In this document: one piece after another, positions 2,040-60,153 of the stretch | Layout: each line of letters begins with the position of its first letter | Position numbering within the stretch: the first letter of the stretch is position 1 | Origin: a virus | Taxonomy: Duplodnaviria; Caudoviricetes | Length of the DNA: 64,000 nucleotides | IMG/VR virus record: IMGVR_UViG_3300031851_000017 | Coordinates: 2,054-66,053 of that record | Direction: 5' to 3' (one strand) | The notes under the pieces: model-generated | What the model was told of the DNA's origin: nothing | The model's database searches: none | Seen by the model: the letters and a program-made list of their open reading frames with translations, nothing else | Translations under genes and position numbers: made by a program

Positions 2040-3740
2040 ATGATAATTAATGAAATTAAAAATGGCATTGGTTTAGTTTGGAGAGATGAAAACAATAACA
2101 GACTACAAGAAACTGTTTCTTTGAAAGACTACAAACATTACTTTTTCATTAAGGCTACGTCAACTAGACATAATAATTTGTTAGTTAAAGACAACAATAC
2201 AAGAGGCAAGTTTCAAGTTGACCTGTCTTATGAATTAGGAGATTGGGTTTCACTAGAAGGTGAATCTTTAGTAAAAGTTTCGTGGGGAACTAAATCTCCT
2301 AGTCTTAGGTATCAGATTAGAGAGAAGTTAGAAGAGTTAGGAGTTGACTCATACGAAGCAGATATACCACATCATTATCGGTATGCTGTTGATGAGTTAA
2401 GTTCTATTCCCGATTATAAAATGCGTAAGTGTTTTTGGGATATGGAGTGGATGCAAGGCGGAGAACATGATGGTAAGATTACCTGTATAGTAATATACGA
2501 TAGTTACGATGATGAGTATAGTGTATTCGCTTGGTTTCCTAACTTAGAGCAGAAACTTAGTATGGAGTTCCTTTACAAATTAAGAAGGAATTATAACTTA
2601 AAAATATTCAAGTCAGAAGAATCTATGCTTGACAACTTCTTAACATATTTTATTCAGAAGAGACCGGATATGTTAATCTCATGGTTCGGATGGAAATTCG
2701 ACTTACCTAAACTAATAGAGAGAAATAGTGCCTACAATATTGATTCAAGAATGTTATCTCCTTTTAATGAAGTAAGAGGGGTTTCTTGGAAGGATAACAA
2801 AGTTAAGATATATCCTAAACAAGTAAACGGGTCTTCTCCTATAACACAACCAATTAAGGGAGTGATTACAGTAGCATTAGATTTAGTTTTTGAAAGACAG
2901 TGGAATGATTCACAAAGAGGAACATTACCTTCTATGGCTTTAGATTATATTTCTGAATCTGTTTTAGGCGATAAGAAATTAGTTAGTGAAAAGTTTCCTG
3001 ATAAAAATGAGTTCTTTGCTAGAGGTTGGTTAGAAGATACTGAAACATATCTAGAGTATGCGATAAAGGATGTTGAGTTAATCAAAAGAATTGATGATGA
3101 GAACCACTGTATTGATTCAGTTTTAGCATTACAGAAATTACTTATTGCTCCTTTTGATGCTTGCTTCTATGCAAGTAATATGGGTGGAATATATTTTATG
3201 CGTAACGCTAATTGGAAAGCACCAACAGGAAAGAAAGGTGAGAAGGTTAACTACGATGGAGCAATGATATACAATCCATTAACAGAAGGCACAAATGGAA
3301 GATATGACAACGTAGCCGCGTTTGATTTCGCTTCTCTATATCCTTCAATGATTATTTCACGGAACATTTCATGGGAATCTAAATCAAAACTTCCAACAGA
3401 GTTTGCAGTTAACTTAGCAATACCTAGAGATTTTAGTGAAGTGAAGGAAGAGAAGATGTTGTATTACAATACTGATAAATTAGGACTATTACCTAAGTCT
3501 CTTATTGAACTTAAAGCATTAAGAAACGAATACAAAAAGAATATGAAAGAAGCAACAACCAAAGATGATAAGATTAAATGGAATAATAATCAAATGGCGG
3601 TCAAGAGATTGATGGCTTCATTTTACGGCATCACCGCGTATCAAGGATTTGGTTGGGCTGATATAGACCTAGCCGCTAGTATTACTGCTAGTGCTAGAGA
3701 GGCTATTAGATTAGCCGCATTTAAAGCGAGGGAATTATAA
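2040..3740 (+). CDS. polB: Family B DNA polymerase, N-terminal part (3'-5' exonuclease, motifs A and B)
   Basis: ExoI FWDMEW, ExoII SWFGWKFDLP, ExoIII YAIKD, motif A AAFDFASLYPS, motif B KRLMASFYG; stops just before motif C. Confidence 0.95.
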   Translation: MIINEIKNGIGLVWRDENNNRLQETVSLKDYKHYFFIKATSTRHNNLLVKDNNTRGKFQVDLSYELGDWVSLEGESLVKVSWGTKSPSLRYQIREKLEELGVDSYEADIPHHYRYAVDELSSIPDYKMRKCFWDMEWMQGGEHDGKITCIVIYDSYDDEYSVFAWFPNLEQKLSMEFLYKLRRNYNLKIFKSEESMLDNFLTYFIQKRPDMLISWFGWKFDLPKLIERNSAYNIDSRMLSPFNEVRGVSWKDNKVKIYPKQVNGSSPITQPIKGVITVALDLVFERQWNDSQRGTLPSMALDYISESVLGDKKLVSEKFPDKNEFFARGWLEDTETYLEYAIKDVELIKRIDDENHCIDSVLALQKLLIAPFDACFYASNMGGIYFMRNANWKAPTGKKGEKVNYDGAMIYNPLTEGTNGRYDNVAAFDFASLYPSMIISRNISWESKSKLPTEFAVNLAIPRDFSEVKEEKMLYYNTDKLGLLPKSLIELKALRNEYKKNMKEATTKDDKIKWNNNQMAVKRLMASFYGITAYQGFGWADIDLAASITASAREAIRLAAFKAREL

Positions 3741-33143: not shown

Positions 33144-34673
33144 TTAATGCATTAAAGCCCATTTACCTTTATATTGTGCATTTGATAATGTTCTTGCTGA
33201 CGCTGTAAAGGATGCTTCTATCGCACCTTTATCTTCGGGGAAAGGAATATCAACATTAGTTATTATAAAATCTGTTAATTTTAATTTAATAAACTCACCC
33301 GTTGCAGTATCCTTTGTAAAGTTTATTTCTATATCTCCACTAGATTCTGTGCTTCCTCTTAATTCATCCCACAATTTAGTATCTGTAATTAATACTGACA
33401 TTTGAATTTCATATGTTCTTTGTGCAGGTATATGTTCATTCATAACTTGCCTACTTGTATTTCCGATAAATCTCTGAGGGGTAATATTATTATTAATTGT
33501 AATAGAACCGGATTTTACTCTTGCATAAGTTTCACTAAATACTTTTAACGAACCATCAGAAAACATAAATGGGTAATTATCAGAAGCAGTAGCACTAAAA
33601 TTTTGTAAATCACTAGGATTTAATTTTCCATTATGGGGAATGTAATCGTTGGAATTATCAGTAACAACATCGTATGCTCTCCTAGTAACTAAAGACAAAT
33701 TAGTTTTCAGTTCTTCACCTTCTGTAAAGTTAAGAGACAAGGTATTAACTTGACACCCCGTAAATATTCGAGAATACATATTCTCATGTGGGGTCAAATT
33801 ATCAACGGCTGTGCTTGCAGACACCCCCGCTTTTCTATATGATACATCTAACCCGAAAGAAGGTAGTGAAGCCCCGTTCGATTCATCGAAAGTATAGGTT
33901 AAAATATCAGAACTAGCAATTTCATCATAAGTAGTTAAATTACTAAAAGTACCATCGGTAGTATCATTTGTAGTTAAAGGTGGATATTCAATACCGCCCG
34001 CTATAACTCTTGAAATTCCAACCCCTCCACTTTTGTAAATGAATTTGTTTGTTGTATTTACATCCCAATCATCAGAAGAACCATTACTGTTCGATAATGA
34101 AGATACTTTTCCTAAAGCATAATACAACCAAGAACCATTATTCATTGATAGGTCTAAAGAACCTCCACTAACGGTTTCTGCTCCTTTGTATTGTAAAGCA
34201 AGATTTCTTGTATTGCCTCCCATTAATGGTAATTGTGTAGTTTGAACATCCACACTAGGCGGAGTAAAACTATTAACTAACCCTAACCAATTATCAGAAA
34301 GTAATTTTTCATTAGTAGTTGAAGGAGCAATAACAGGCGCACCGAATGCTAATAATTTAACATCCACATTTTCAGCCCCCGCACTTGTCATTACCGAAAC
34401 ATCAGAATCAAAAGTAAAACTACTTGCAGTATTAGAAGTAACTGTAACATAAAAAACAGTATCAGTAGTTTCATTAATTACTTTTGCTCTGCAACCAACA
34501 TATAGGTCTTTTAAAAATTTATATTTTGCTTGTTCCGAACTGTCTAATACTACAATGTTTAGATTAGTATTCCCACTAGCCCAAGTTACATTCATACTAT
34601 CAAAAAACATATCCATTTCAGGCACTAACGTAGCCATTGTCCCTGCGCCTACAAATACTTCATTACTTACCAT
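33144..34673 (-). CDS. Major tail (tube) protein
   Basis: GSWLYYALG, GCQVNTLSLNF, SGSITINNN, RTYEI tube-protein-like motifs; position after the tail terminator. Confidence 0.78.
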   Translation of the reverse strand: MVSNEVFVGAGTMATLVPEMDMFFDSMNVTWASGNTNLNIVVLDSSEQAKYKFLKDLYVGCRAKVINETTDTVFYVTVTSNTASSFTFDSDVSVMTSAGAENVDVKLLAFGAPVIAPSTTNEKLLSDNWLGLVNSFTPPSVDVQTTQLPLMGGNTRNLALQYKGAETVSGGSLDLSMNNGSWLYYALGKVSSLSNSNGSSDDWDVNTTNKFIYKSGGVGISRVIAGGIEYPPLTTNDTTDGTFSNLTTYDEIASSDILTYTFDESNGASLPSFGLDVSYRKAGVSASTAVDNLTPHENMYSRIFTGCQVNTLSLNFTEGEELKTNLSLVTRRAYDVVTDNSNDYIPHNGKLNPSDLQNFSATASDNYPFMFSDGSLKVFSETYARVKSGSITINNNITPQRFIGNTSRQVMNEHIPAQRTYEIQMSVLITDTKLWDELRGSTESSGDIEINFTKDTATGEFIKLKLTDFIITNVDIPFPEDKGAIEASFTASARTLSNAQYKGKWALMH

Positions 34674-36514: not shown

Positions 36515-39500
36515 CTAATTCAATCCCATTAATTGCTTATATTTATACTGTGCGGCTAAAATCCTAGCGTTATCATTCATAGAAGTTTCTTTAGAACCCA
36601 CTTTACTCGGTATAGATGACCCCAATCTTGTTGATGCAGAAAATCCCCTTATTGGTTCATCAGTCTTACTTCCCGACATTGCCGATGATGGATTTAGTGA
36701 TTTTAGTGATTCACTAGTTTTAGAATCAAAGGATACAAATGGAATATATTTTAGTTGACCCAAACCCGCCAACATTCCTCTAGGCAAAGTTGTCATTAAT
36801 TTGCTATCTTTATTTTTTATTTCTAATTTAGGAATTTTCCTTTTATTCGGTAGTATTTCTTCTACAAACAATTGCTGTAATGTTTTAGTTATGTTAAACA
36901 TATTATAACTATTTTGACCTGCTCTATTTTCTCTTAATAAACTTCCTAAGTTTAACAAATTCTTGAATGATTTAAAATCTAATTTATCCACTCTTTTTGT
37001 TTTAGTACCTTTTTCATCTGTTTGTTCTTTTAACGTTATTAAAAAGTTACCGAAAAGACTTACTAACTGTTCTCTATCAGTTTTACTTAGCCAAAAGAAT
37101 AAACTGTTAATTTCATCAACCTCTTCTATTTCTTCGATAGTAAGTGAAAACATTTTTGTTATTTTGTTTAGTTGTTTTTTTCTTAATATTTCAGACTTAC
37201 TAACATTACCCTTTTGGTCTTCATATGTTTGTGTTATTTCTTCAATTATATTATTCAATGTTATTATATCAACATTATCGTATGCAAAATTCCCTCTTAA
37301 TATGCTTTTGTAATAACCTTGATAGCCGTCCTCAAACCATGTTGGAAATATATCAGTTTCCACTGTTTCTTCTTGGTCTACCCATTCTCTTTTTTCTCTT
37401 TCTTCTTTCTGTAAAGAGCCATAAGAAAGAAGTATTTTTTTATTGTCTTCACTTGTAAACCACTTATACGCTTCTGATTCTTTGAACTTATCAAAAATTT
37501 CCTTTGCACTTTCTGTAACTTCTTCTGTAACTTCTTCTGTAAGCATTCCATCCATTTCATCTGAATCAAATCCCACGCGTAGATTTGACAAACCTACGAG
37601 ATATTTTCCATATAATCTAAATAAATTATCAACATCTTCTTGTTTTCCGCTATTTGTTAATTTCTTAATATTTTGAGATGTAATGGTTTTACCATCTTTT
37701 GTTTCAATTTTTAGACGATTCATTAAATCATTTATTTTTTTAAAGTCATTATACGTTGCATCTATCGCCCACCTAATTCTAGTTTCAGGATTTCCTGAAT
37801 TTTCGCCCTTTCCCGATGTGTTAAAAATAGAAGTTGTTAGATAAAAGGCAGCATCATCCCAATTACCTTTGTTAGTAACCTTTTCTAATTTTCTAGGAGA
37901 ACCTTTAGTAAAATTATAACTATCTTTTTGTAAAAGCGTGTGCAATTTTTGTTGGAAAGGCATAATATCATCTACAATTAAATTATGTATTCTATCTACA
38001 TCTTTATGAAATGTGTCGGGGGTGTTGTATAATAATCTAGAATCCGAAGATGTACCTTTAGGTCTTGTTCCTGTATCTTCATCAGCGAGTTGTGTTCCAT
38101 ATTTTTTATTATAGTTTAAAAATTCATTAAAATTCTCTTTACTTTGTAACGCTTCTTTAGCCTTGCCGTCTGCAAATTTTAACTTAAACGTATATTTACC
38201 CATCATTACTTCGCCTTTTTGTGGTGTTAATACTGCTTTAATAGCAGCACCAATATCATACATTGCAGTACTACTTATTCTTGTATCACTAGCAATTATT
38301 TTTTCAATTAATTTAGTGGCTCTTGCCTCATCGGTAATTTCGTTATAAAATTGTTTAACAGTATCGTAAGCCTGTTGTTCAGATAGTCCCATGTAATTGC
38401 CTCCTGTTTCGGGCTTCAAAGAAGAAAACACATTATACATTTCAACTACGGGCGTTTCTATTGGATTGCGATTATCCTTTTGGTCTAAAAATGGATTATT
38501 AGGGTCTTTTGATTGACCTTTAAAATGTCTTTCTAACATTGTGCGTGTAGTTTTTTCATCACTAAATATTCTTTCTAACACTAAAATTCCATTAGTAAAA
38601 CTAGGCTCGAAGAAGTCTTTAAACCCACTAAAATCTGTATCCTTTGGTGTAAATTTTTTATTGGAAAAGTTTTTATTTTTGTTTTTCCAATTAGGTTCTC
38701 TCTTTAAAAAAGTTATAGTTTTCAAAACACTTTTTAGAAGTTGTTTTTCTATATCCTCTTCTTCATCTTGGTCGGTATCTTTAGTTTTTTCTTTATATAC
38801 ATTGTCTATAATATCTAATATTTCTTTAAGGACAGAAATGGCAAATTTCTGTTCGTTTCCTTCACTATCTTTTGGTTCGGATATTCGCTCTACAAACGCA
38901 CTACCGCCTTCTGATAAATCGCTAAGCAACATTAAAATCCATTTTGTCTTAGCATCTGATGTTTCAAAAATTTCTTTAGCCTTTGCAAACTTCTTTTTCT
39001 CATTTTCTTCACCATCTAATAGTGTCGTTAGATATTTAGTTTTTTCATTACTCTGACTTGTAGTATTTATCCATTTCTCGTATAGGTCTATTTTCGTTTT
39101 TAAATCTTCATCATCCCTAGTTGATAAATTATATTTAGATTTCTCATCTAATATATTTTTATCTAGTCCGGCTTTATCAAACACTTTTTGAAAATACTTA
39201 TTAGTGTCTATAATAATATTAAGTGAAGATTTGGTTTCTTTACCACTCTCTGATTTTGATGTTTCTAATTTAACAGTAATTATTCCTTTTTCTTTTAATA
39301 TTTCAGGTATATAAATAACCTTAGATTTATCAAATGAATCTATAACACTGTAATTACTTTCATCATCAACTTCTTCTAAAAGTGCAAGTTTATCTTCAAG
39401 ACCCTGTTCTATTGCTTCTTCAAATTCTGCATCAAAATTCATTCGTTTCTCTTTAGAGAGTCCATTCCTATGTTCCTTTAAGTTTTTAATTTTTTTATTC

Positions 39501-40111
39501 TTTAAATAATTAGTTTTTATTTTTTCTCTCATATCTTCTATTTCTTTATTAGTAATTTTAGGTTTATCATAAGTTTCTTCTAATAATTGGTTTCGTCTTT
39601 TTTCATTGAGAAAATGTTTAGTTAGAAAGTTTATTTTTTTAGCCCTATTTAATAAATTAACGCTAAAAATATATTTATCATCAGTTCTAGTTAATTTTTT
39701 CTTTTTTTGTTCTTTAGAGGTATCATATATTGTTACATAACCTTTATCTGCTAATTTTTCTATCAACGAGTGTAATTTTACCTTTCCTATTTTTTCCATT
39801 ATTAATTTTATCAATTTCTTTAATTCTTTTGATTTGAGTCTTCTTACATTAGCATCTTTATCTTTAAAATCATCCTCATCTGCTTCCCTAATATCCCTAA
39901 CAGAAAGGTTTGCCTTTTTCATTTTTTCATTGGGATTTTCTACTGACTTAAAAAAGATAGAAGCAGCAAATTTTTCAAAAAATTGTTCTATTCTTTTATT
40001 AGAGTGAGAAAATTCTTTATCATTAAATAATTCAATATTTTCTTCGGTTAATAAGAACTCGGTTAGTTGGTATCTATCTATACTACTATTAATCCATACA
40101 CCCTTTTTCAT
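36515..40111 (-). CDS. Large K/E/D-rich hypothetical protein (1198 aa), possible internal virion protein
   Basis: Long ORF with GGTGG RBS; no motif recognised. Confidence 0.75.
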   Translation of the reverse strand: MKKGVWINSSIDRYQLTEFLLTEENIELFNDKEFSHSNKRIEQFFEKFAASIFFKSVENPNEKMKKANLSVRDIREADEDDFKDKDANVRRLKSKELKKLIKLIMEKIGKVKLHSLIEKLADKGYVTIYDTSKEQKKKKLTRTDDKYIFSVNLLNRAKKINFLTKHFLNEKRRNQLLEETYDKPKITNKEIEDMREKIKTNYLKNKKIKNLKEHRNGLSKEKRMNFDAEFEEAIEQGLEDKLALLEEVDDESNYSVIDSFDKSKVIYIPEILKEKGIITVKLETSKSESGKETKSSLNIIIDTNKYFQKVFDKAGLDKNILDEKSKYNLSTRDDEDLKTKIDLYEKWINTTSQSNEKTKYLTTLLDGEENEKKKFAKAKEIFETSDAKTKWILMLLSDLSEGGSAFVERISEPKDSEGNEQKFAISVLKEILDIIDNVYKEKTKDTDQDEEEDIEKQLLKSVLKTITFLKREPNWKNKNKNFSNKKFTPKDTDFSGFKDFFEPSFTNGILVLERIFSDEKTTRTMLERHFKGQSKDPNNPFLDQKDNRNPIETPVVEMYNVFSSLKPETGGNYMGLSEQQAYDTVKQFYNEITDEARATKLIEKIIASDTRISSTAMYDIGAAIKAVLTPQKGEVMMGKYTFKLKFADGKAKEALQSKENFNEFLNYNKKYGTQLADEDTGTRPKGTSSDSRLLYNTPDTFHKDVDRIHNLIVDDIMPFQQKLHTLLQKDSYNFTKGSPRKLEKVTNKGNWDDAAFYLTTSIFNTSGKGENSGNPETRIRWAIDATYNDFKKINDLMNRLKIETKDGKTITSQNIKKLTNSGKQEDVDNLFRLYGKYLVGLSNLRVGFDSDEMDGMLTEEVTEEVTESAKEIFDKFKESEAYKWFTSEDNKKILLSYGSLQKEEREKREWVDQEETVETDIFPTWFEDGYQGYYKSILRGNFAYDNVDIITLNNIIEEITQTYEDQKGNVSKSEILRKKQLNKITKMFSLTIEEIEEVDEINSLFFWLSKTDREQLVSLFGNFLITLKEQTDEKGTKTKRVDKLDFKSFKNLLNLGSLLRENRAGQNSYNMFNITKTLQQLFVEEILPNKRKIPKLEIKNKDSKLMTTLPRGMLAGLGQLKYIPFVSFDSKTSESLKSLNPSSAMSGSKTDEPIRGFSASTRLGSSIPSKVGSKETSMNDNARILAAQYKYKQLMGLN

Positions 40112-40124
40112 TCATTATACCACC

Positions 40125-40838
40125 TTAAGCAAGCCATTTAGCCCATGCAACTGCTTTACCCAATCCTTGTGCTAGACCTAGACCACTTTGAGGTGGAGTA
40201 TATGTTGGTTGACCTGTTTGTGGGTCAATCCAATAAGGATTATTCATGTTGTCATAACCACTAGGAGGAATAGGATAACCGCTACCGTTGTTCATAGCCA
40301 TTTGTTGTTGGTTTAGAGTATTGTTAAAATTAGTACTCATGTTTCCTCCTTGTATTTGACTTGGATTTAACCCTTGATGATTCATACCCATTTGAGGATT
40401 CATACCCATGTTGGTAGAAGGAGCAGGTGCAGATGGAGAACTAAACCCTTGTGCTTCGAGATACTGTTGTTTAGCCATTCTTCTTTGCATAACAACTTCA
40501 CTATTAATTGCAGTAGCCAATAAATTCTGTATATCTAAATCAATATTTTCTTGAGTTATAGCAGTAAAATCACTAAGAGCATCGGGTGTTATAGATAAAT
40601 TGCCACTAGAACTTTGACTAAACTCTAACTTTACTAACATTTGACTAACACTTCTTGTAACAGTGTCTTCAATAAGTTTTTCTAAAGCCCCTAAGAATGC
40701 CTCTCCGTGATATTGAAAAAAATCTTCTACATGGTTTTCCTGTAAAGTTAGAAGATTGTTCATTGCTTTGAATTGGGTTTGTTGTTGTGCGCCAATTTGG
40801 GTTGCTAACGCACCATTACTAGTTCCGAATAATCCCAT
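40125..40838 (-). CDS. Helical protein with Q/N/M/P-rich low-complexity tail and amphipathic C-terminus
   Basis: MGMNPQMGMNHQGLNP, GYPIPPSGY, ends GLGLAQGLGKAVAWAKWLA. Confidence 0.75.
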   Translation of the reverse strand: MGLFGTSNGALATQIGAQQQTQFKAMNNLLTLQENHVEDFFQYHGEAFLGALEKLIEDTVTRSVSQMLVKLEFSQSSSGNLSITPDALSDFTAITQENIDLDIQNLLATAINSEVVMQRRMAKQQYLEAQGFSSPSAPAPSTNMGMNPQMGMNHQGLNPSQIQGGNMSTNFNNTLNQQQMAMNNGSGYPIPPSGYDNMNNPYWIDPQTGQPTYTPPQSGLGLAQGLGKAVAWAKWLA

Positions 40839-40841
40839 TAA

Positions 40842-41531
40842 TCACTCCCCCCCTGTTTCAACATTGACAACGTTAACGCCTTCGGTTAATAGAGTTTTGA
40901 CTCTTTCATTAATATTGTTAGTTTCTATAATTAATCTAAATAATTCTTCTTCTTTATTTTCAGCACCGTTGTTTGGAGGTCGGATAGTCCAACCCATAGC
41001 AGAAAGAGATTGCATATCGGCTTGTTTTAATGTTGTCATTGGACTTGATGTTACTAAATTAACAGGGTTCAAACTTTTAGCAGATGGGATGTATGCACTA
41101 AAAGAAAGTCCGTGTTCTTCTGCTAGTATTTGTTGTTCTAACATTTCATATTGTCTATGAATTGCTGCGTGTTTTTCACAATATGTTCCTCTCATTGGAT
41201 AACCTTTTCTTACTTTATGTAAAGGTAAAGGTGGTCTTCTAGCATCACCTGCTTCCCAAACTTTTTGTGAACCGCAAACCACACATCTATCCTTTAAATT
41301 ATATTTGAATCGGTATGGTATTTTCAAAAATTTCTTTTTTTCGGGCTTTAATACTTTGATTATTTCTTTCAATTGTTTTTTAGGTTTTAGGTTTTTATAC
41401 TCATAATGTATAATTGAACCTGCTGCTCTCGCGGCAGAAAATCTATCTAAAAATGGGTTAGTTCCCACATGGGCTGATTGTGCGCCAATAAGATTTGTTG
41501 GGTTGTAGTTCATTGTCATGTGGTAATTCAC
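40842..41531 (-). CDS. Zn-finger protein (CxxC...CxxH)
   Basis: RCVVCGS and YCEKH motifs; downstream of the GTPase. Confidence 0.7.
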   Translation of the reverse strand: MNYHMTMNYNPTNLIGAQSAHVGTNPFLDRFSAARAAGSIIHYEYKNLKPKKQLKEIIKVLKPEKKKFLKIPYRFKYNLKDRCVVCGSQKVWEAGDARRPPLPLHKVRKGYPMRGTYCEKHAAIHRQYEMLEQQILAEEHGLSFSAYIPSAKSLNPVNLVTSSPMTTLKQADMQSLSAMGWTIRPPNNGAENKEEELFRLIIETNNINERVKTLLTEGVNVVNVETGGE

Positions 41532-41533
41532 CC

Positions 41534-42202
41534 TTAGTAGTCCTTTATCATTGTTAGGATTCCTCTATATACCATCTCTGAATCAGATTTGGCACTTACT
41601 ATATATTTGTAGCATGGTATTCCTTTATCATTTAACTTCTGCATTCCATTTCTAAAGGATTCAAATATTGGGTGTTTTTCTATTGTCTCATAATCATATT
41701 TGTCTTTCCACAAATCATGTTTATTAGCCCAAAGACCAACTGCTACTGGGTAATCATGTAACTTTTTCTTTTTCTTCTTTCCTCCAATGTTCCAATAAGG
41801 ATTACAAATAGTATCTACTAAAAAAGTCCAACATAACTGTTGTTCTATATCGTAGTGCTTATCCATATGTCTATCATCTAACATGAATATAATATATTTA
41901 ACTTTTCTAGTTCTCATATCTTCTATCCATTCTTGCCAAAAAACAGTTTCTCCTCCTACATCTGCCGTCTTAACTGTGTGTGCATCACCATCTAATTTTA
42001 CATATTTTCTTGATGCTCTATGTAGTCCTACTGTTCTATCTGTAATAGAAGGGACTTCACCTCTTGTTCTTAGTTGATGATGTAGTGTAGTTTTACCTGC
42101 CTTACTTGCTCCATATACACCGAATGGTATTGAATGCAATCTTTGATAAACTTTATTCAATCCTTCAACTAATAGAATAGCGAAGCCCGCCATTACTGAC
42201 AT
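41534..42202 (-). CDS. Arf/Sar-like small GTPase
   Basis: G1 GASKAGKT, G2 RTVG, G3 DVGGE, G4 NKHD, G5 SAK; N-terminal hydrophobic/amphipathic helix. Confidence 0.9.
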   Translation of the reverse strand: MSVMAGFAILLVEGLNKVYQRLHSIPFGVYGASKAGKTTLHHQLRTRGEVPSITDRTVGLHRASRKYVKLDGDAHTVKTADVGGETVFWQEWIEDMRTRKVKYIIFMLDDRHMDKHYDIEQQLCWTFLVDTICNPYWNIGGKKKKKKLHDYPVAVGLWANKHDLWKDKYDYETIEKHPIFESFRNGMQKLNDKGIPCYKYIVSAKSDSEMVYRGILTMIKDY

Positions 42203-42208
42203 TATATA

Positions 42209-42433
42209 TCACCATAAATGATGCCATAAATTAATTATCCCATTCCATGTAGAAGTAAATAAATTATATCCGAATAAAGATATTGAGTGTCCTATTAAAA
42301 AACTAACCCCACAAGAAATAGCGCCCCAAAGAAAAAATCTTGCTCTTAAAAACCAAATATCAGCAGAATGCGCTCTTTGTAAATCATAGGCTAATGTGGA
42401 TTCATCGAACCCCATTAGGATTTCTCCTACCAT
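42209..42433 (-). CDS. Small membrane protein (1 TM plus amphipathic tail)
   Basis: FFLWGAISCGVSFLIG...TWNGIINLWHHLW; GGTGA RBS. Confidence 0.75.
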   Translation of the reverse strand: MVGEILMGFDESTLAYDLQRAHSADIWFLRARFFLWGAISCGVSFLIGHSISLFGYNLFTSTWNGIINLWHHLW

Positions 42434-42441
42434 GTAATCAC

Positions 42442-42867
42442 CTACTCATTGAAGCCTGTTAAAAATGTTGGGCTAATTGTATTACCATCAAATTGTTGTG
42501 TTTGTTGAGTCATTGTGGGTAAATTAGCATCTCCATAAAAAGGCTGTCCGAATGATTGGTTGAAACTTCTAAGTGATTCTCTAACCCTTTTACGATTTTC
42601 TTCATCTCTCGCTTTTCTATTCCAATAAGCATCTATTTTTCTTTGTAATAAAAAATCTTCAATAATATCATTTAACATTAAATCAAATAATGCCTTTAAT
42701 AACATAATTCCTCCTACTGTACATATTCCAAATAGCACTGCATGGGATAATCCGGTGTAGGGGAAGTCAACACCATATATAGTGTAAAAATAAATGTTAG
42801 TACCACTAATTGCACCAACGAAAAGTATAGTCATTACTAATCTTGTATCTGTATCAATACTAGGCAC
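42442..42867 (-). CDS. Two-TM membrane protein with cytoplasmic coiled tail
   Basis: LVMTILFVGAISG and AVLFGICTVGGIMLL hydrophobic segments followed by a charged helix. Confidence 0.75.
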   Translation of the reverse strand: MPSIDTDTRLVMTILFVGAISGTNIYFYTIYGVDFPYTGLSHAVLFGICTVGGIMLLKALFDLMLNDIIEDFLLQRKIDAYWNRKARDEENRKRVRESLRSFNQSFGQPFYGDANLPTMTQQTQQFDGNTISPTFLTGFNE

Positions 42868-42871
42868 AATA

Positions 42872-43147
42872 TCAACTCCACGAACAGGAGTATGAACCCC
42901 CCGAACCTGTTAGAATTGCAGTTATTCCTGTACCCATTGACCTATTGTGCATATCAAATTCTATTGTGCTATTAGCAGTTAGAATTAGTCTAGCAACTTC
43001 ATCTGCTGAACCAACAGTTGTACTGTTATGGTCGTATATTTTTAATGTGGCAGTTCCGGTAGAACAAAAATGAATGCTTGTTAATTTGCACCTACCATCA
43101 TTCACTACTGCACTTGCAGTTTTTACAGGACTACCTGCGGAAACCAT
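42872..43147 (-). CDS. Small beta-rich protein, possible capsid decoration/fibre
   Basis: 91 aa, S/T/G-rich, second gene after the MCP. Confidence 0.5.
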   Translation of the reverse strand: MVSAGSPVKTASAVVNDGRCKLTSIHFCSTGTATLKIYDHNSTTVGSADEVARLILTANSTIEFDMHNRSMGTGITAILTGSGGSYSCSWS

Positions 43148-43608
43148 TACTTCACTTCCTTTTTAGTAGTAGTTTTCTTTTTAGTAGTAGTTTTCTTTTT
43201 TGGTGCTGTCTTTTTAGGAACTGCTTTTTCTTCCTTAACAACAGTTTCTTTTTTTGGTGATATTGTTTCAGTAACAGTTTCAACTACATTTTCAACTACT
43301 GCTTCAACCTTTTTAGTTACAGGAGTTTTTACCTTCTTAGGATATAGTATATCAAGAATATTTCCTTCAACACCTAAGTGCCTACGGATTGCCTTTACTC
43401 TATTTTCCGGTAAGTTTGCAATATCCTTTTTATCATCTTCTGTAAAGTCTATTTCTATTGCTTCATCACCTAAATATAATGCTGCAATTCTTGCAGGTAC
43501 TTCACAAGGAGCATTTGCATTAATGGAATACAGTGTTTCCCCTGCCCCTCTTATTACTAGTTCGCCATTTCTATGTGTTTTCAATTTTACTAAAGCCATA
43601 ATTATCAA
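43147..43608 (-). CDS. Hypothetical protein with K/T/P-rich histone-H1-like tail
   Basis: Ends KKTAPKKKTTTKKKTTTKKEVK; first gene after the MCP. Confidence 0.7.
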   Translation of the reverse strand: MIIMALVKLKTHRNGELVIRGAGETLYSINANAPCEVPARIAALYLGDEAIEIDFTEDDKKDIANLPENRVKAIRRHLGVEGNILDILYPKKVKTPVTKKVEAVVENVVETVTETISPKKETVVKEEKAVPKKTAPKKKTTTKKKTTTKKEVK

Positions 43609-43622
43609 CCTTTTTTTATAGG

Positions 43623-43664
43623 GTAGTAATCCCTACCCCGATACTTCGGAGTAGAGACTACTAC
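43623..43664 (-). promoter_or_regulatory. 19-bp RNA stem-loop just 3' of the major capsid gene
   Basis: Arms 43623-43641 and 43646-43664; the three DNA mismatches all become G-U pairs on the minus (mRNA) strand. Confidence 0.7.
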
Positions 43665-43692
43665 TTTACGTTTTCACTTACTATCGAATACC

Positions 43693-45096
43693 TTAAGCAC
43701 TCTTTAGGTTTGTAATTTTACCTTGTCCCTTGAAGAAAGAACAGCAAGTTTCTCCCATAGTACGGTACATTCCTTGATTTCCAAGTTTACCAACACCGAA
43801 TGGGTTTCCACTAGTAATACCATCTTCGAAGTATTGTGTAGGTTTCATTACAGATAGCCACAAGTGGTCAGTATCTAGAACTAATATATCACTAATTCTG
43901 TTAGATGTGGACTTACCTGTTGACGGCATATCTTTAGCAGGGATGATTGGTATGTCATAGTATGTTGCAACTCTGAAACCAACTTCTTGACCCTTGACAC
44001 CACGAACACCATTATGGGAAGGAACGATTTCTTTCCTATCCATAAATCTCTCTTGTGATTGTAGTAAATCAGAGATTTTCTGAATGGTATCGTATCCTGT
44101 AATCATAACTTTAGGGTTTCCACCGTTAGTACGGATTCTTCTAATCATATCATTAAGAATACTTAGTGTTAGAACCCTACATTCACCTGATGTATAACCT
44201 GCACCGAAATCAACTTCTGCATCTAGGAAAGAAGGAACACCTGTGTAGGTATAATTTCCACTTCCACCGGATGTGTTAACAGTAACAGTTCTAGTTGAAC
44301 CAAAGATAGTAGTAGCATCAGCAAGTTGTGCTGCTGTACCGTTATTTGTTTGGTTGTGATAGAATACGTCATCGTCAGCCATAGTTGCAAGTTCAACCGC
44401 AGATGAAACTATCTTCATTAAAGAAGTATAGTTCTTCTCAATACCTGTTGTACCGTTCTCTGAGTATTTCTCAAGAGGCATAACTAACATTTTACTCTGA
44501 ACTTCTGCGTGTAGTTTACCCATGTCTTCTCTAACGATAGCACGAATATCACCAACACCATCATCAATTGCAGCCATTTCCATTCCTAGTTCTGAGAACT
44601 CGAATAGATGTGCAATAGTCTTAGGGCTAACATATAGTTTAGTATATTCAGGAGCAATTGCTCTGAAACCATCTGCACCACCTAATGTTGCGTTTTCTCC
44701 AACACCACCAATTTGGTCTGCTCTAGGAGTTGCTGCATCTGCTGATGAAATACTAGCGGTAACTGCATTAGTACCTGTACCGAATGCTGCATCACTACCA
44801 CCAATAGGTCGTGATTTCAGAACTCTCCATCCACTAGATGTGTATGGTCTCTTAGCAAGCATTGCTAGAGGGTTTACTTCTTGGTTTAATACAGACCAAA
44901 CTTTCTGTCCGTATAGTAGGTTGTACAAATCACCTAGACCTGCTGCACCCGTAAATGCATTAGCACTAGTATCGTGAGGAGTACCGAAACCACCTACAAC
45001 TCCACCTGCTTTAAGCAAGGCATTGCCGCTTCCTGTTCCGCCGTATCCGTATGTTGCTGCTTCTAAATCTTTCATTGTTTTAATATATCCACTCAT
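43693..45096 (-). CDS. Major capsid protein (HK97 fold)
   Basis: Follows the protease/scaffold; YGQKVWSVLNQE, SGWRV, SPKTIAH, TYYDIPIIP, GMYRTMGE. Confidence 0.88.
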   Translation of the reverse strand: MSGYIKTMKDLEAATYGYGGTGSGNALLKAGGVVGGFGTPHDTSANAFTGAAGLGDLYNLLYGQKVWSVLNQEVNPLAMLAKRPYTSSGWRVLKSRPIGGSDAAFGTGTNAVTASISSADAATPRADQIGGVGENATLGGADGFRAIAPEYTKLYVSPKTIAHLFEFSELGMEMAAIDDGVGDIRAIVREDMGKLHAEVQSKMLVMPLEKYSENGTTGIEKNYTSLMKIVSSAVELATMADDDVFYHNQTNNGTAAQLADATTIFGSTRTVTVNTSGGSGNYTYTGVPSFLDAEVDFGAGYTSGECRVLTLSILNDMIRRIRTNGGNPKVMITGYDTIQKISDLLQSQERFMDRKEIVPSHNGVRGVKGQEVGFRVATYYDIPIIPAKDMPSTGKSTSNRISDILVLDTDHLWLSVMKPTQYFEDGITSGNPFGVGKLGNQGMYRTMGETCCSFFKGQGKITNLKSA

Positions 45097-45108
45097 AATT
45101 TCACTTCC

Positions 45109-46305
45109 TTAATTTCCCCTCACAAGAGAATGTACGTCATCCCAAGTCATATTGGCTGCTGCCTCTAAACTTGTAGGTATTCCTTCCGGTAATGCCATTG
45201 ACATTTCCACACTTTTGCGAATTGTTGCGTCTTTCTCTGATAGAGATTTTCGTAGTAGAGCAAATTCTTTCTTTAGTGCTGCTACATCTGTTCTAGCATC
45301 GTATGATGCGGATTGTGCTGCTGATTTCTTAACTGCAAGTTCTTCTGAAAGTCTTGCTCCAAATTGCTTAGAAAGATTATCGTATGCAATTTTTTCCATC
45401 TGCTCTGCTTTGAATTGTGCATATGCTTTCTCAACATTATCTGCACTTAGGTTAAGAGTACTAAAGTCAGCAGCATCTAAGCCTTCACTCTTTAGTTCAG
45501 TAGGTGGAGTTGTAGGATTACCGTTATCTACAACCAATGTCCCTGCTTCTGATGTTGTATTATCAATATCAAGAGCCTTCATTTCTTCTTCCTCTTCTTC
45601 TTCTTCTTCAGCCTTCATTTCTTCTTCCTCTTCTTCTTCCTCTTCCATAGTAGCCATACTATATTGGGCGGTCTTCGTTACTTCGTCATATTTTTCTTCC
45701 TCTCCGAGTCCGTTAACTTGTTTCATCAAGTCATTCAACTCTTCGAGTGCTTTTTCCAATTTTTCACTCATTGTTTTATCCTCCATTTTTAAAATGTCGA
45801 ATTTTGCTTCGGGATTAATACCCTTTTCACAGATAGTTACTTCATGTAACTCTAATCTGTCTATCTCATTATATTCACCAAACTCATCTGAGGTTCTTTG
45901 TTTCTTAGAAATCGCCTGACCTCCAATACTAAAAGAACGAAGAGTTCCTTTTCTAATACTTCTTGAAATTTCTTTTGCCTTTTCTATGTCATCTCTTAAT
46001 TTAATAACAACATAAAACCCTACATCATCTACACCAGTTTTATGTAAAGTACCATTCATATCTCTATACTTCTCAATAACTTCTCCAACTTGTACATTAG
46101 AATGATTAGACATAACATTTCTATATTTCTTTTCAGACATATATTTTTCAACTGCTTCATCTAATGCCTTTAATGTAATTAAATCATTTTGCTTATCTAC
46201 AATTTCTATTGAAGCATAGCCACCAATAATTAAATCATCAGACTTAAGAATAGTAAACTCATGCTCTTTATCCGCTTTGAATAAAAGAGATGGCTGCATA
46301 AGCAT
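45109..46305 (-). CDS. Prohead protease fused to acidic scaffold domain
   Basis: IIGGYAS...DKQND, catalytic His (MSNH), SFSIGG, EVTICEKGINPEA; C-terminal coiled E-rich region. Confidence 0.92.
   Translation of the reverse strand: MLMQPSLLFKADKEHEFTILKSDDLIIGGYASIEIVDKQNDLITLKALDEAVEKYMSEKKYRNVMSNHSNVQVGEVIEKYRDMNGTLHKTGVDDVGFYVVIKLRDDIEKAKEISRSIRKGTLRSFSIGGQAISKKQRTSDEFGEYNEIDRLELHEVTICEKGINPEAKFDILKMEDKTMSEKLEKALEELNDLMKQVNGLGEEEKYDEVTKTAQYSMATMEEEEEEEEEMKAEEEEEEEEEMKALDIDNTTSEAGTLVVDNGNPTTPPTELKSEGLDAADFSTLNLSADNVEKAYAQFKAEQMEKIAYDNLSKQFGARLSEELAVKKSAAQSASYDARTDVAALKKEFALLRKSLSEKDATIRKSVEMSMALPEGIPTSLEAAANMTWDDVHSLVRGN
45574..45646 (-). repeat. 36-nt tandem repeat encoding (E9-MKA)x2 in the scaffold
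   Basis: agccttcatttcttcttcctcttcttc occurs at 45574 and 45610. Confidence 0.85.
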
Positions 46306-52563: not shown

Positions 52564-54774
52564 TTATTTTAACTGATTACGGTCATTGAACTCAGTATAT
52601 TCATATTCAGATTCATCTGTATCTGTAATATCATTCCCTTTAGGTTCATCTGTTTTATTACTAAGGAAACCATCTACCCTTTTCGCAAAAGTATTAATTT
52701 TATTGGTAATGTTACTGAGTTCTCTTCTAACAGTATTTGCATTCCTTAAAGCAAGAACCGCCCATTTTTGTTTATCTAAATCTGAGTTCTGTTTTACTAA
52801 TTTATTTAAAAAATTACTTTTTAATAACACATAGTTTAGTATTTCAGAATTATTAATTTCGGAAGTGCTATCTTCATCATATTTAGGCAAAGAAGTTTCT
52901 TTCTCTTTAAATTTTTCACCACTTGATTCTTCAATTATTTCAAACTTTAATGCAAAATCTATCCATAACTTTTCAATTTCTTCTTTGTTTTTTCTTAAAA
53001 GATTAAATCTATTTCTTTCAATTGCTCCCATATCGTCTTCCGACCGTTCTCTAGAAATTGTAGTTTTTTGGTCTAAAAATGGGTTATTGGGGTTTTTTGA
53101 TTGGCCTTCAAAATGTTGACTAACGTTCCTATCTACTAATTTTCTTTTACCATCTTTATCTTTTACACTTCCTTTTGGTGTAATAGTTAATTTTTTTTCT
53201 ATTTCTTTAAATACATTTGTTACACTATTAAAAAGATATTTTCTTTTTTCGTTTATTTTCAAGCCCCGTACTTTACTTTCATAATCATCTAAAAGTTCAC
53301 TACTTCCTTCTTGTTCTTCACTACCAGATTCTAATTCTCTTGCAATATTACTTAACATTTGTTTGAACTCACTTACTGAAAATGTCTCTCCCTTAATAGA
53401 AAACGTATTATTACTTAAAGAATCGAAATTGACTTCATCTCTATTTGTAAGTGAAGTAGCGGCTACAAAAACCACACCTAAACTATTAGCAATATCCCTA
53501 TGTTTCTGTAAATCAGAAATATCTCTTCTAGTGTCATTATAAATATTTACTATTGATGGTTTTAAATTAAAACCTTTAGTTTCTAATATAATTTTTGTAA
53601 AATGCAAGACTTCGTGATTTTGTTTTGCTTTTTTCAGAGAAATATTAATTTGATATATCATATTTTGTTTCATTTGTATAGCCTTTTCATCATCAGTATC
53701 AAGAGGACTTAACATTTCAACAATTTCAGTTATTTCGTCTACTAGGTGATTTGTGTCTTCCATTATCTCATATGCAAGGGTTAGTAAATCTTCTTTAGTA
53801 AGTTCAGTTTTATCTGTAACTGCCCCACCAAGAACAGTTAATATACCCTCTATTTGGTCTTTAAAATCCATATCATTCTTATTATCACTATACAAATTCA
53901 TCATTTCTCTAATGTTATTAAAATATTCTTGGGTATCTAAATTTAAATATTCTATTAATCTTTTACTGCCCTTATACGTTTTAATATCATCTTCGACTTC
54001 TATTCCAAGTTTATCGAATATATTATTTAAAATGTCCCTTGACGGTTTATTACCATATATTTTGAATTGGTTTAACCAACCACCTACCTTTGAATAAAAT
54101 GCCCCTTCTTCTACTAACAATTTTCTTAAATTGGGAGAAATGTCCTTTCTGCCTTTGAAAAAATCGTTAATTGAATTATATAAATCAAATATTAATTTAA
54201 CTTCATCATCATTGTCTCTATCAACATCACCATTTTCTAAAATAACCTTAAGTTTTTCTTCTATTTCTTCCGCTTCAGTAGGTAAAGGAGTATCAAGAAC
54301 TTTTTCTATTTTAGTAAAAAAATTAGGTTTTTCTTTTGTTCCAAAAAATAATTTATGTACTTTAGGATATTTCTCTTCGGAATATTTTTTCTTAAGGTAA
54401 TAAATAGCAGATTCTAAATTAAGTAAAGTCCTTATTTCATCTGTCCGTCCAGTAGATTCTAATACAACTTCTGTTAGGTCATCTTTTGTTTTAATGTTTT
54501 TACTCTTTTTCTTTGTAGCAAGTATTTCTGTTGTACCGCCAGCGCCCTCAAAAAGACCATCAAATATTATTTCTTGTCCTAAACCATTTTTTTCATTGGA
54601 TTCTTTTTTCTTATCTTCCCGAACTAAATCATTATATTTTTTTTCTAAAGTCCTTATTTCGTTAATAGTAATATTATGAATCTCTCTTCTATTCTTAAAT
54701 AATACGCTTAATATTTTACCCCAATCTTTTTGTGCCTTCATAATATCTTTTTTTAAAATATCCATAAACGACAC
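52564..54774 (-). CDS. Large helical leader-family protein (MSFMDILK, 736 aa)
   Basis: GTG start; K/E/D/N-rich; shares a 17-aa motif with 36515..40111. Confidence 0.78.
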   Translation of the reverse strand: MSFMDILKKDIMKAQKDWGKILSVLFKNRREIHNITINEIRTLEKKYNDLVREDKKKESNEKNGLGQEIIFDGLFEGAGGTTEILATKKKSKNIKTKDDLTEVVLESTGRTDEIRTLLNLESAIYYLKKKYSEEKYPKVHKLFFGTKEKPNFFTKIEKVLDTPLPTEAEEIEEKLKVILENGDVDRDNDDEVKLIFDLYNSINDFFKGRKDISPNLRKLLVEEGAFYSKVGGWLNQFKIYGNKPSRDILNNIFDKLGIEVEDDIKTYKGSKRLIEYLNLDTQEYFNNIREMMNLYSDNKNDMDFKDQIEGILTVLGGAVTDKTELTKEDLLTLAYEIMEDTNHLVDEITEIVEMLSPLDTDDEKAIQMKQNMIYQINISLKKAKQNHEVLHFTKIILETKGFNLKPSIVNIYNDTRRDISDLQKHRDIANSLGVVFVAATSLTNRDEVNFDSLSNNTFSIKGETFSVSEFKQMLSNIARELESGSEEQEGSSELLDDYESKVRGLKINEKRKYLFNSVTNVFKEIEKKLTITPKGSVKDKDGKRKLVDRNVSQHFEGQSKNPNNPFLDQKTTISRERSEDDMGAIERNRFNLLRKNKEEIEKLWIDFALKFEIIEESSGEKFKEKETSLPKYDEDSTSEINNSEILNYVLLKSNFLNKLVKQNSDLDKQKWAVLALRNANTVRRELSNITNKINTFAKRVDGFLSNKTDEPKGNDITDTDESEYEYTEFNDRNQLK

Positions 54775-58719: not shown

Positions 58720-60153
58720 CTAGAAGTTCAGTCCTAGCATACCGCCTAAAGAGTTATTCGTAGGTTTAGGGCTATCGAACAACCCCATATCATCTAACAA
58801 CATAAATACATCTTGTGAATTTTGGGTGGCGGCATTGGCTAAAGCCAAACTCATTACTAAGTCATCGTGTGCGCCCACACCTTCAAACTTTCCTGAATGA
58901 GTAATAGAAAACATTGACAATTCTTCAATCAACATATTGGTTAGTTTCTTACTAGAATTATCACCATAAGGAAAGTTGATTTTTCCATTTTCTATGTTCA
59001 TTTGTAGGTTAAGAATTATTTCCTGTTTTCTTTTTCGTGTTGTGTTGAAATCTGTTACATTCAAATCTGAAATGTTTCTTAATTCTTGTGTAAATGCCTT
59101 AGCAAACGTATTTGTTTCATATAGGATTTCTTCGGGTTCAAATATTTTACCTATCAATCTAATTTTATCTATATTTTCTCTAAACTCAACATTTTTAGCC
59201 CTATCAACATGGACTATTGTTTTGTTCATATTTTCATCCACCTCTAAAACAGTAATTACATTGTAATCTCCATCGGTAGATATAGCAGGGTCAACACCAA
59301 CGTAATATTTGTACCCTTTATCTTTCCTATGCCCTAATTTCAAAACATAATCCTTATTTTTACACTTAGTTACAAACTCAGGATTGAAAAGTGCTGTGCC
59401 AGTAGAAATTGGAACACAAAGATATTCTCTTGTAAATTTTAAAGAACCAATTTCTGACTTCCTACGCATGAGAGCATCGTAGTCCCACCTCTCCGGCCAT
59501 AATGGTTCATTGAGTGCATTAAGACAGGGATATTTAGTAACATTATATGCCTCATTTTCTTCTAATTGCGAAAATATATCGGTATATGTAAATGGTGTAC
59601 CAATCATTCTCAATTTAGAAGTGTGATGTAGTGTCGGTATCATATCTCCAAAAAACCAATCAGTAACTTTCTCAATACCCACTAAACTAAACTCTTTCAA
59701 AGGGTCGTCAATGATAATTTCTTGAGGGTGAAGTCCTCTAATTTGCGAACCAACAGAACGCTCTAAAATTGCGTTACCATTTGTTAATTGAATATTACCG
59801 ATAGCCCAACCCCTACTAGGTTTGTATTGTTTTAATGCAGGTATATTGAAATATCTATCAATTTCTCTCATGTGAACTAAAGTCTGCTTTTGGTTGGAAG
59901 AAATATACAACATTTGGAAAGGCGGTTCTTGAAATATAAGATTCCATACCACCCAACTATGCATAAAAACAGATTTTCCGTGGTCTCTACTACAAATTAT
60001 AACTGTTCTATCAGTAGTATTCATAGATTCTAACCATTCTTGCATATATTCAGGATACATCATACCTAAAACATTCTTGAAAAAATAAGGAAAGGAAGTT
60101 TTAGATAATTCCATATCCATTTGTGTTACAAAGTCTAACTCATTTAATTCCAA
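58720..60153 (-). CDS. terL: Terminase large subunit
   Basis: Walker A SRDHGKS, Walker B IIIDD, IGTP, nuclease GVDPA and HDDLVMSLAL. Confidence 0.95.
   Translation of the reverse strand: MELNELDFVTQMDMELSKTSFPYFFKNVLGMMYPEYMQEWLESMNTTDRTVIICSRDHGKSVFMHSWVVWNLIFQEPPFQMLYISSNQKQTLVHMREIDRYFNIPALKQYKPSRGWAIGNIQLTNGNAILERSVGSQIRGLHPQEIIIDDPLKEFSLVGIEKVTDWFFGDMIPTLHHTSKLRMIGTPFTYTDIFSQLEENEAYNVTKYPCLNALNEPLWPERWDYDALMRRKSEIGSLKFTREYLCVPISTGTALFNPEFVTKCKNKDYVLKLGHRKDKGYKYYVGVDPAISTDGDYNVITVLEVDENMNKTIVHVDRAKNVEFRENIDKIRLIGKIFEPEEILYETNTFAKAFTQELRNISDLNVTDFNTTRKRKQEIILNLQMNIENGKINFPYGDNSSKKLTNMLIEELSMFSITHSGKFEGVGAHDDLVMSLALANAATQNSQDVFMLLDDMGLFDSPKPTNNSLGGMLGLNF

Follow-up and report, generated by a model that had tools for sequence, protein, structure and literature searches.

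The machinery by which tailed viruses of archaea leave their cells is, in the account given in PMC10791045, wholly uncharacterised, and the hosts are said there to lack murein. The archaeal system that comes closest to the subject of this study is that of Haloferax volcanii, where the small GTPase ArvA, annotated as MMR_HSR1 and having Arf as its best match between hidden Markov models (HMMs), is reported to carry an N-terminal amphipathic helix and to be required for the formation of extracellular vesicles, which bud at the cytoplasmic membrane (PMC10927574). According to the same report, its operon partners are ArvB (DUF2073/OapB, SepF-like) and ArvC (OapC), a Zn-ribbon protein proposed to be a GTPase-activating protein (GAP), and the ArvABC (OapA/B/C) system is also found in other Euryarchaeota and DPANN. 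Here we describe a block of five open reading frames (ORFs), at 40125-42867 on the minus strand of a tailed virus, in which an Arf-like GTPase is combined with small membrane proteins. The virus is IMG/VR record IMGVR_UViG_3300031851_000017 (G000), and all coordinates refer to the 64-kb window formed by its positions 2,054-66,053. We regard the genes and the Arf-like nature of the GTPase as solid. More tentatively, and with rather less than even confidence, we read the block as a membrane cassette that tailed archaeal viruses of the magrovirus type express late, that is complete in itself with an Arf-fold GTP switch at its centre, and that most likely serves virion release.

The five ORFs form a single run with intergenic gaps of 8, 6, 2 and 3 nt, and all are present where a preliminary description of the locus had placed them; it called them an operon, a term for which the gaps of 2-8 nt are the whole basis. 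In reading order they encode a protein with two transmembrane (TM) segments, a protein with one, the GTPase, a Cys/His protein and a Gln-rich protein (Table 1). Every GTPase motif listed earlier is found in the translation, which is that of a real small GTPase: G1 at G31-T38 (GASKAGKT), G2 at R56-G59 (RTVG), G3 at D81-E85 (DVGGE), G4 at A159-D163 (ANKHD) and G5 at S203-K205 (SAK), the last of which we take to be Ras/Rab-like rather than of the Arf type. To these are added FWQEW (88-92), IIFMLD (104-109), an N-terminal hydrophobic helix (4-22) and the stretch GGKKKKKK (140-147). The motifs G1-G5 stand in order, and a six-stranded sheet with five helices completes the features of the Ras superfamily (TRAFAC P-loop). 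In an alignment of 26 family members with identities down to 25%, G31, G36, K37, D81, G84, D109, N160, K161, W165 and G194 are invariant; together with a ratio of nonsynonymous to synonymous substitution rates (dN/dS) of 0.05-0.09, this makes the motifs more than a chance resemblance.

Assignment to a family is less direct, as all Pfam matches of the window GTPase are sub-threshold: SRPRB scores 23 bits, Roc 18.5, Arf 18.2 (E 0.0019) and MMR_HSR1 17, and NCBIfam returns the generic small_GTP domain alone, below its cut-off. The protein is not filed as a member of Pfam Arf (PF00025) because it misses the gathering cut-off of 22.3 bits and because Glu85 takes the place of the catalytic Gln that follows DxGG in Arf proteins. 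Across the 26 members, Arf is matched at E<=0.01 in nine, and the outliers P0157, P0167, P0169 and P0179 pass its cut-off (27.2, 26.8, 57.2 and 32.1 bits), with Arf as their best family. At the catalytic position, the 80 close relatives introduced below carry Glu (48) or Gln (32), and 69 of 80 distant loci that could be matched by a regular expression carry Gln (51), Glu (12) or Asp (6), the other 11 being unmatched. The best match by sequence among solved structures, found with the family profile, is 8oun_A (E 4e-10), followed by KRas and Arl8 at about 1e-7; 8OUN is described as GerdArfR1, an Asgard Arf (bioRxiv 10.1101/2024.02.28.582541).

Fold comparison points the same way. The AlphaFold model of the GTPase (pLDDT 90.1, pTM 0.85) has a predicted helix at residues 2-22, and its top 33 VIA fold rows are all Arf/Arl chains, by their titles mostly GTP-type or effector-bound; the fold is thus nearer to Arf/Arl than to other small GTPases, by a Z margin over G-alpha, LokiRagO and mimivirus Rab of just about 1.5-2. 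ESM Atlas matches come in the order viral clusters, bacterial clusters (in which 17-67% of members have Arf) and then an Asgard Arf cluster at 0.92, and the top 50 fold matches in BFVD are all giant-virus proteins, mostly Ras/Rab/Ran with a few other GTPases. The Arf-like nature proposed at the outset is therefore borne out, by fold match and by GerdArfR1 as best solved sequence relative, and on the predicted structure the protein is Arf-like both in fold and in nearest relatives. The further suggestion of a bearing on how the Arf family arose is not supported: the score stays below the Pfam Arf cut-off, and nothing places the viral clade basal to Arf.

Two properties would allow the GTPase to act at a membrane, and both, already pointed out in the preliminary description, are confirmed by the 26-sequence alignment. 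The N-terminal 20-25 residues run from hydrophobic through aromatic to basic in 26/26 members (hydrophobic moment, muH, 0.24-0.60; maximum Kyte-Doolittle value over 19 residues 0.5-2.0), and most of the sequences, among them every one from a magrovirus, preserve the basic character of an insert that follows helix 3; this insert is short or absent in three of the four outliers. These features bear on the possibility that the protein is a soluble regulatory GTPase of translation, the ribosome or signalling, which happens to lie beside membrane-protein genes. The Pfam family matched by most members is MMR_HSR1, a 50S ribosome-binding GTPase (18/26, all weak), which would agree with such a role; yet the fold ranking favours Arf/Arl, the hydrophobic helix and the basic insert are conserved, and TM genes flank the GTPase gene in three lineages, so that we find a soluble regulator scarcely credible.

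Of 579 candidates from a word-indexed search with the window GTPase, 364 protein clusters match at E<=1e-3, and the 120 of these that were listed have identities of 62-97%, a length of about 220 aa and, for the most part, a marine source; one JGI source name among the matches is 'GTPase SAR1 family protein', which indicates that automatic annotation had already recognised the domain. Exhaustive phmmer comparison with 1.84 billion representatives found at least 60 matches, all unannotated, 32 of them at <=1e-10, including full-length relatives 25-38% identical. By tblastn, the window GTPase has no match in phage records. The outlier P0169 has none in plasmid or phage records, viral_contigs or cellular genomes, its homologue search returning only itself, and P0134 and P0143 were not found in viral_contigs. 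Among cellular genomes (185,579 species) the sole match is a 29-kb contig, L162, of a metagenome-assembled genome labelled Maricaulis, with a GTPase 75% identical; it is most likely a mis-binned magrovirus contig.

Conservation of the block was followed in three sets of loci. The close set comprises 80 IMG/VR loci with GTPases 76-99% identical to that of the window (195 of 201 pattern matches confirmed). A distant set of 80 IMG/VR loci, lineage 2, was found with P0138, 30% identical to the window GTPase (81 of 82 confirmed). Lineage 3 was found with P0134 in metagenome contigs, and three of its 11 loci, with long flanks (L248, L253, L257), were examined. Loss of synteny in relatives had been named beforehand as a reason to give up the proposal; instead, the GTPase is kept together with membrane, Cys/His and Gln-rich genes. 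Iterated profiles of the window proteins detected the GTPase in 80/80 close and 80/80 distant loci and the Cys/His protein likewise, and the Cys/His gene lies directly downstream of the GTPase gene in 160/160 IMG/VR loci and in 3/3 lineage-3 loci (E 1e-36 to 1e-39). In the close loci, some of which are short, the profiles also found the two-TM protein (78/80), the one-TM protein (80/80), the Gln-rich protein (74/80) and the major capsid protein (MCP; 76/80); none of these four profiles matched in the 80 distant loci. By HMM-HMM comparison, the Gln-rich protein is homologous to the product of the lineage-2 gene that follows the Cys/His gene (hhalign 94.5%, E 7.6e-8, 89 columns). Judged from these sequence comparisons, the GTPase, the Cys/His protein and the Gln-rich protein are a homologous core in three deeply diverged lineages.

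Membrane proteins accompany this core in most loci of all three lineages. TM segments were called by Kyte-Doolittle hydropathy in 19-residue windows. Among the 80 close loci, the second ORF upstream of the GTPase has two segments in 76, one in one and three in one, and is missing in two; the ORF directly upstream has one segment in 73 and none in seven. In lineage 2, a TM ORF of 60-115 aa lies directly upstream of the GTPase in 75/80 loci, preceded in 74/80 by a TM ORF of 120-230 aa with a charged coiled coil. An extra protein of about 80 aa follows the Gln-rich gene, with two TM segments in 57/80 loci and 0, 1 and 3 in eight, eight and seven; it is homologous neither to the window TM proteins nor to the EF-hand two-TM protein of the complete relative G001 described below (E 0.07-0.37). 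The three lineage-3 loci have the same gene order, except that one more gene, of about 250 aa, precedes the GTPase, and TM genes flank the core in 3/3. Lineages 3 and 2 are homologous throughout (hhalign): the two-TM/coiled-coil protein at 98.5%, E 1.5e-15; the small TM protein at 94.9%, E 4.3e-8; the Gln-rich protein at 89.5%, E 1.9e-6; and the downstream two-TM protein at 95.5%, E 1.6e-8.

The cassette has a different genomic address in each lineage. In the window it lies, as first described, in the late region between capsid and tail genes (Table 1). In lineage 2 it is found upstream of packaging genes, with TerL about 7-8 kb downstream; compared directly with these loci, window ORFs give strong phmmer matches from the GTPase (79 loci) and TerL (50 loci) only, with weaker ones from the Cys/His gene (one locus, E 1e-4) and from an opposite-strand ORF inside the GTPase gene (two loci, 2e-5). 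In lineage 3 it occupies about 5.8-10.5 kb of L248, L253 and L257, where it follows a double GT-B glycosyltransferase of 811 aa encoded on the same strand, and no structural gene lies within 5-8 kb on either side. A serine recombinase (DNA-invertase family, E 6.5e-19) faces it from the opposite strand. The element that carries the lineage-3 cassette may be a virus, a provirus or a plasmid. The variety of addresses indicates that the cassette moves as a unit rather than belonging to any particular structural genes. Phage lysis genes typically form portable cassettes of this kind, whose position varies: S-R-Rz of lambda stand before the terminase genes, and the lysis genes of P2 between head and tail genes.

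The same positions have to be weighed against other roles. With the window block between capsid and neck/tail genes and that of lineage 2 just before packaging genes, the GTPase and TM proteins might form a membrane-associated platform that anchors procapsid assembly, DNA packaging or head-tail joining, and the NPFLD motif that the Cys/His protein has in common with two giant virion-block proteins would suit such a platform. The neighbours differ between lineages, however, and lineage 3 lacks nearby structural genes; moreover, we know of no membrane-bound assembly in tailed viruses, which also counts against a platform and makes it improbable in our view. A position after the head genes, and TM segments in proteins encoded among virion genes, would equally be expected of virion-borne ejection or entry proteins, inserted like those of podoviruses into the membrane of the next host for DNA delivery. 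Inside a capsid, a GTP switch would presumably be left without fuel, and the lineage-3 cassette lies away from structural genes; we hold such a delivery role to be highly improbable.

A more serious competitor, still rather unlikely in our judgement, is manipulation of the host envelope without virion release, in the form of vesicle shedding, decoy vesicles, superinfection exclusion or altered traffic in surface glycosylation. The closest functional analogue, ArvA, is described as making vesicles, not as lysing cells (PMC10927574). The lineage-3 cassette stands behind the same-strand glycosyltransferase, and the strong conservation of the GTPase would suit a regulated cell-biological function. 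Against envelope manipulation, lineages 1 and 2 (lineage 1 being that of the window) carry the cassette within the morphogenetic strand, beside capsid or packaging genes, and the ArvB and ArvC families are not detectable.

Virion release, the reading that we prefer, is suggested by position, by membrane features and by the lack of other candidates for an egress or lysis role. None of 29 window proteins scanned with Pfam, nine of them also with PHROGs, gives a holin or endolysin match; the earlier statement that no such gene is recognisable is upheld for these proteins, which are part of those of the window. Amidase_2 and Phage_lysozyme are absent from the virus record and from G001, a complete relative of 99,250 bp that has terminal repeats and is collinear with the window, and the five cassette genes and their neighbours contain no cell-wall hydrolase domain. 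On the late strand of G001, the two proteins of the cassette are the only clustered small TM proteins; a tape-measure-like protein there also has hydrophobic segments. A separate canonical lysis cassette, which the preliminary description would have taken as grounds for dropping its proposal, thus finds no sign in the two enzyme families in G000 and G001, although G001 does hold another holin-like candidate (below). Elsewhere in G001, at 70157-70663 (= L246:10157-10663), we observed a 168-aa protein, unmatched in Pfam, whose N-terminus resembles a signal peptide with a lipobox-like Cys at its end.

The partner proteins were characterized individually. The 141-aa protein has the architecture of a holin, with two hydrophobic segments and then a helix rich in Lys, Arg and Glu; this is a likeness of architecture only, and no holin family matches it in Pfam or PHROGs. 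In the Cys/His family, C83, G87, G110, C118 and H121 are invariant (24 sequences). The window member was first described as a Zn finger, of which the invariant Cys-Cys-His set stands, whereas no known zinc-finger family or fold was matched: searches of Pfam, of PDB sequences and of folds found nothing for the protein, and its model is of middling quality (pLDDT 59, with about 75-88 over core residues 50-140). We considered it as an ArfGAP, for which an ArfGAP-domain sequence match and a conserved arginine finger after the zinc site would be expected, and on these grounds set this reading aside. Prediction of a complex between the GTPase and the Cys/His protein scored 0.01 against a mark of 0.32, a value that gives no verdict on binding in either direction. 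For the Gln-rich protein, Pfam, PDB and ESM Atlas yielded no match. PADLOC, run on nine proteins, gave no defence-system match.

The GTPase gene appears to belong to the core of these genomes. A TerL-based sample gave 80 loci (263 of 264 confirmed), of which 14 on contigs of at least 80 kb were chosen; the GTPase is single copy in 14/14 of these records, including 12/12 of those at least 90% complete. Selection was estimated between the window and six relatives from the close loci, with dS near saturation and several pairs without a value. All five cassette genes are under purifying selection, with dN/dS below 0.4: beside the GTPase, the Cys/His protein is at 0.12-0.15, the Gln-rich protein at 0.07-0.24, the two-TM protein at 0.15-0.22 (two of six pairs with a value) and the one-TM protein at 0.19-0.36, MCP being at 0.07-0.22. 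The dN of the GTPase (0.05-0.15, against 0.07-0.24 for MCP) is the lower in five of six pairs, the exception being L033 (0.102 against 0.073), and by these substitution rates the constraint on the GTPase equals or exceeds that on the capsid protein. As to expression, 17 runs on record as RNA, among 20 runs listed from 12 studies, contain part of 40125-45096. In four runs from four studies, contigs cover MCP in 4/4, and contigs with zero differences lie at 40101-40323 and 42858-43050 (run X2) and at 42472-42658 (run X7); no contig in these four runs covers the GTPase or most of the Cys/His gene, which is not evidence of silence. Since RNA libraries can contain DNA, the contigs are weak support for transcription.

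Taken with the layout of the block, these data allow a working model of virion release. In its GTP state, the GTPase would attach to the host membrane from the cytoplasmic side through its N-terminal helix, with help from the polybasic hairpin, and would act there with the two small membrane proteins, which could be receptors, activators or formers of pores or rafts. The Cys/His protein would be a constant regulator or effector of the GTPase, and the Gln-rich protein, hydrophobic at either tip, a partner with membrane activity or a condensing role. Late in infection, the host membrane would thereby be remodelled or ruptured and the tailed virions released, the GTP switch setting the time or the place. 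Membrane binding, GTP dependence, interaction of the five proteins, late timing and the role in egress are all things that we infer. In its boldest form, which we consider possible but on the unlikely side, the block would be the egress machine of marine tailed archaeal viruses, working by GTP-timed membrane rupture or scission, portable between lineages, in which an Arf-like switch replaces the holin clock and membranes are deformed in a manner akin to Arf, Sar1 or ArvA; among viruses of prokaryotes, it would then be the first release system known to be driven by a GTPase.

Several observations weigh against a role in release. None of the five proteins matches any known holin, lysin, guanine nucleotide exchange factor, GAP or coat family. 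Replacement of the catalytic Gln by Glu means that the chemistry of the switch may differ from that of Arf. The GTPase is among the most conserved genes, whereas lysis proteins usually evolve fast. Homology of the window TM proteins to their lineage-2 counterparts is not significant, either for the two-TM protein (hhalign E 0.0032, probability 9.9%) or for the one-TM protein (E 0.06). Given the glycosyltransferase neighbours in lineage 3, an envelope-modifying role fits as well as egress. Finally, G001 encodes at 76651-76893 (= L246:16651-16893) a lone holin-like protein of 80 aa with two TM segments, a very basic tail and a weak EF-hand match (E 0.007). It lies about 1.2 kb before the first base of the window, in the early/replication block beside an RFC-like gene (recognised as such by eye from its N-terminus), and is, from these features, a possible alternative membrane effector.

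The features of the cassette and its surroundings are collected in Table 1. The Cys/His gene starts with GTG, so its true start may be an ATG a few codons further in. Portal and DNA ligase are also encoded in the record, which is 66 kb long and estimated to be 70% complete. Group B1 magroviruses are described as having a split DNA polymerase, a ligase and a halovirus-like structural block (PMC5434244), and the window virus fits that group by its described features rather than by direct comparison.

Table 1. Coordinates in the window of the five cassette genes and of other annotated features
Feature	Position	Strand	Basis
141-aa membrane protein; two hydrophobic segments, then highly charged helix; holin-like architecture	42442..42867	-	ORF
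74-aa membrane protein; single hydrophobic segment and aromatic C-terminus	42209..42433	-	ORF
222-aa Arf-fold small GTPase; N-terminal hydrophobic/amphipathic helix, polybasic hairpin insert, Glu85 at catalytic-Gln position	41534..42202	-	
229-aa Cys/His protein; probable zinc site C83, C86, C118, H121; basic stretch; N-terminal NPFLD motif	40842..41531	-	
237-aa Gln-rich protein; MGLFG hydrophobic tip, conserved helical domain ~39-132, Gln/Asn/Pro/Met-rich low-complexity region, amphipathic Trp-rich C-terminus	40125..40838	-	
Major capsid protein (MCP)	43693-45096	-	SU10_MCP 4.7e-10, phrog_24667 2.4e-23
Prohead protease, upstream of cassette	45109-46305	-	Peptidase_S78
Two small soluble ORFs between MCP and cassette	43147-43608, 42872-43147	-	
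Lys/Glu-rich 1198-aa protein, right after Gln-rich gene	36515-40111		
Tail tube, beyond Lys/Glu-rich protein and two more ORFs	33144-34673		
Terminase (TerL)	58720-60153		
Family-B polymerase match	2040-3740		ORF

Among window ORFs of 60 aa or more, exactly three contain the motif NPFLD: 40842-41531 (residue 25), 36515-40111 (539) and 52564-54774 (564), the two latter, giant proteins having a longer common motif around it. In the Cys/His family, N-[PA]-F-[LM]-D-R is kept in seven of eight close relatives aligned, the eighth having S for N. NPFLD may be a short docking motif that ties the cassette to virion-block proteins. In lineage 2, a 2282-aa ORF lies directly upstream of the cassette (L153:258-7106), with a thermosome gene nearby (L083:1-1575; Cpn60_TCP1, 553 bits) and a weak LuxR-type helix-turn-helix match; with these features lineage 2 fits magrovirus group A as described in PMC11706807.

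Literature searches returned no paper on a GTPase of magroviruses or Poseidoniales viruses or on the cassette, and the word 'GTPase' appears 0 times in the main texts of PMC5434244, PMC10160649, PMC11706807 and PMC8651126; the supplements of the first three may hold it as an automatic annotation. New here are the homologous core in three lineages, its portability, its universality in the TerL sample, the alternation of Gln and Glu, and the finding that the ArvB and ArvC families are not detectable. For the question of egress in archaeal tailed viruses, the cassette is a candidate that is concrete and testable: a gene set conserved, universal in the sampled genomes and portable, around a putative membrane-anchored GTP switch. 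Magroviruses are counted among the most abundant viruses of surface-ocean archaea in the account of PMC5434244. The system would show that Arf-style membrane switches, whose known reach comprises eukaryotes, Asgard archaea and the haloarchaeal ArvA system, also operate in viruses whose archaeal hosts lie outside the Asgard group.

Compared with known systems, the locus resembles several and coincides with none. From the Arf family (eukaryotic Arf1, Arf6, Arl1, Arl3 and Arl8; Asgard ArfR such as GerdArfR1, PDB 8OUN/8OUM) the GTPase differs in scoring under the Arf cut-off, with SRPRB higher, in having Glu85 for the catalytic Gln, in a polybasic hairpin insert of about 20 residues, and in being encoded by a virus of prokaryotes. 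ArvA (HVO_3014) with its zinc-ribbon partner is the nearest functional analogue, likened here by its published description. The viral GTPase has the same Pfam pattern (weak MMR_HSR1/Arf) and an adjoining Cys/His protein; TM proteins and a Gln-rich protein are further components of the virus block that arvABC lacks. OapC (PF09845) has no match at E<=0.01 in the virus record, while the control fired in Haloferax, Methanocaldococcus and Methanosarcina, and 24 Cys/His family members do not have it among their Pfam matches at E<=1; OapB (PF09846) has none at E<=0.01 in G000 or G001, the control firing in Haloferax and Methanosarcina. With holin-endolysin(-spanin) cassettes the block has in common small TM proteins with a charged tail and a compact late arrangement whose position varies between related viruses; it differs from them in having no muralytic enzyme and in the GTPase at its centre. 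We know of no described lysis system centred on a GTPase, and literature searches returned none either. Giant viruses, which infect eukaryotes, have small GTPases that they captured recently from eukaryotic Rab, Ras and Ran genes (mimivirus Rab, PDB 5XC5; Ras/Rab/Ran in Nucleocytoviricota), whereas the magrovirus protein is Arf-like, very divergent, and encoded in a tailed archaeal virus together with dedicated partner genes.

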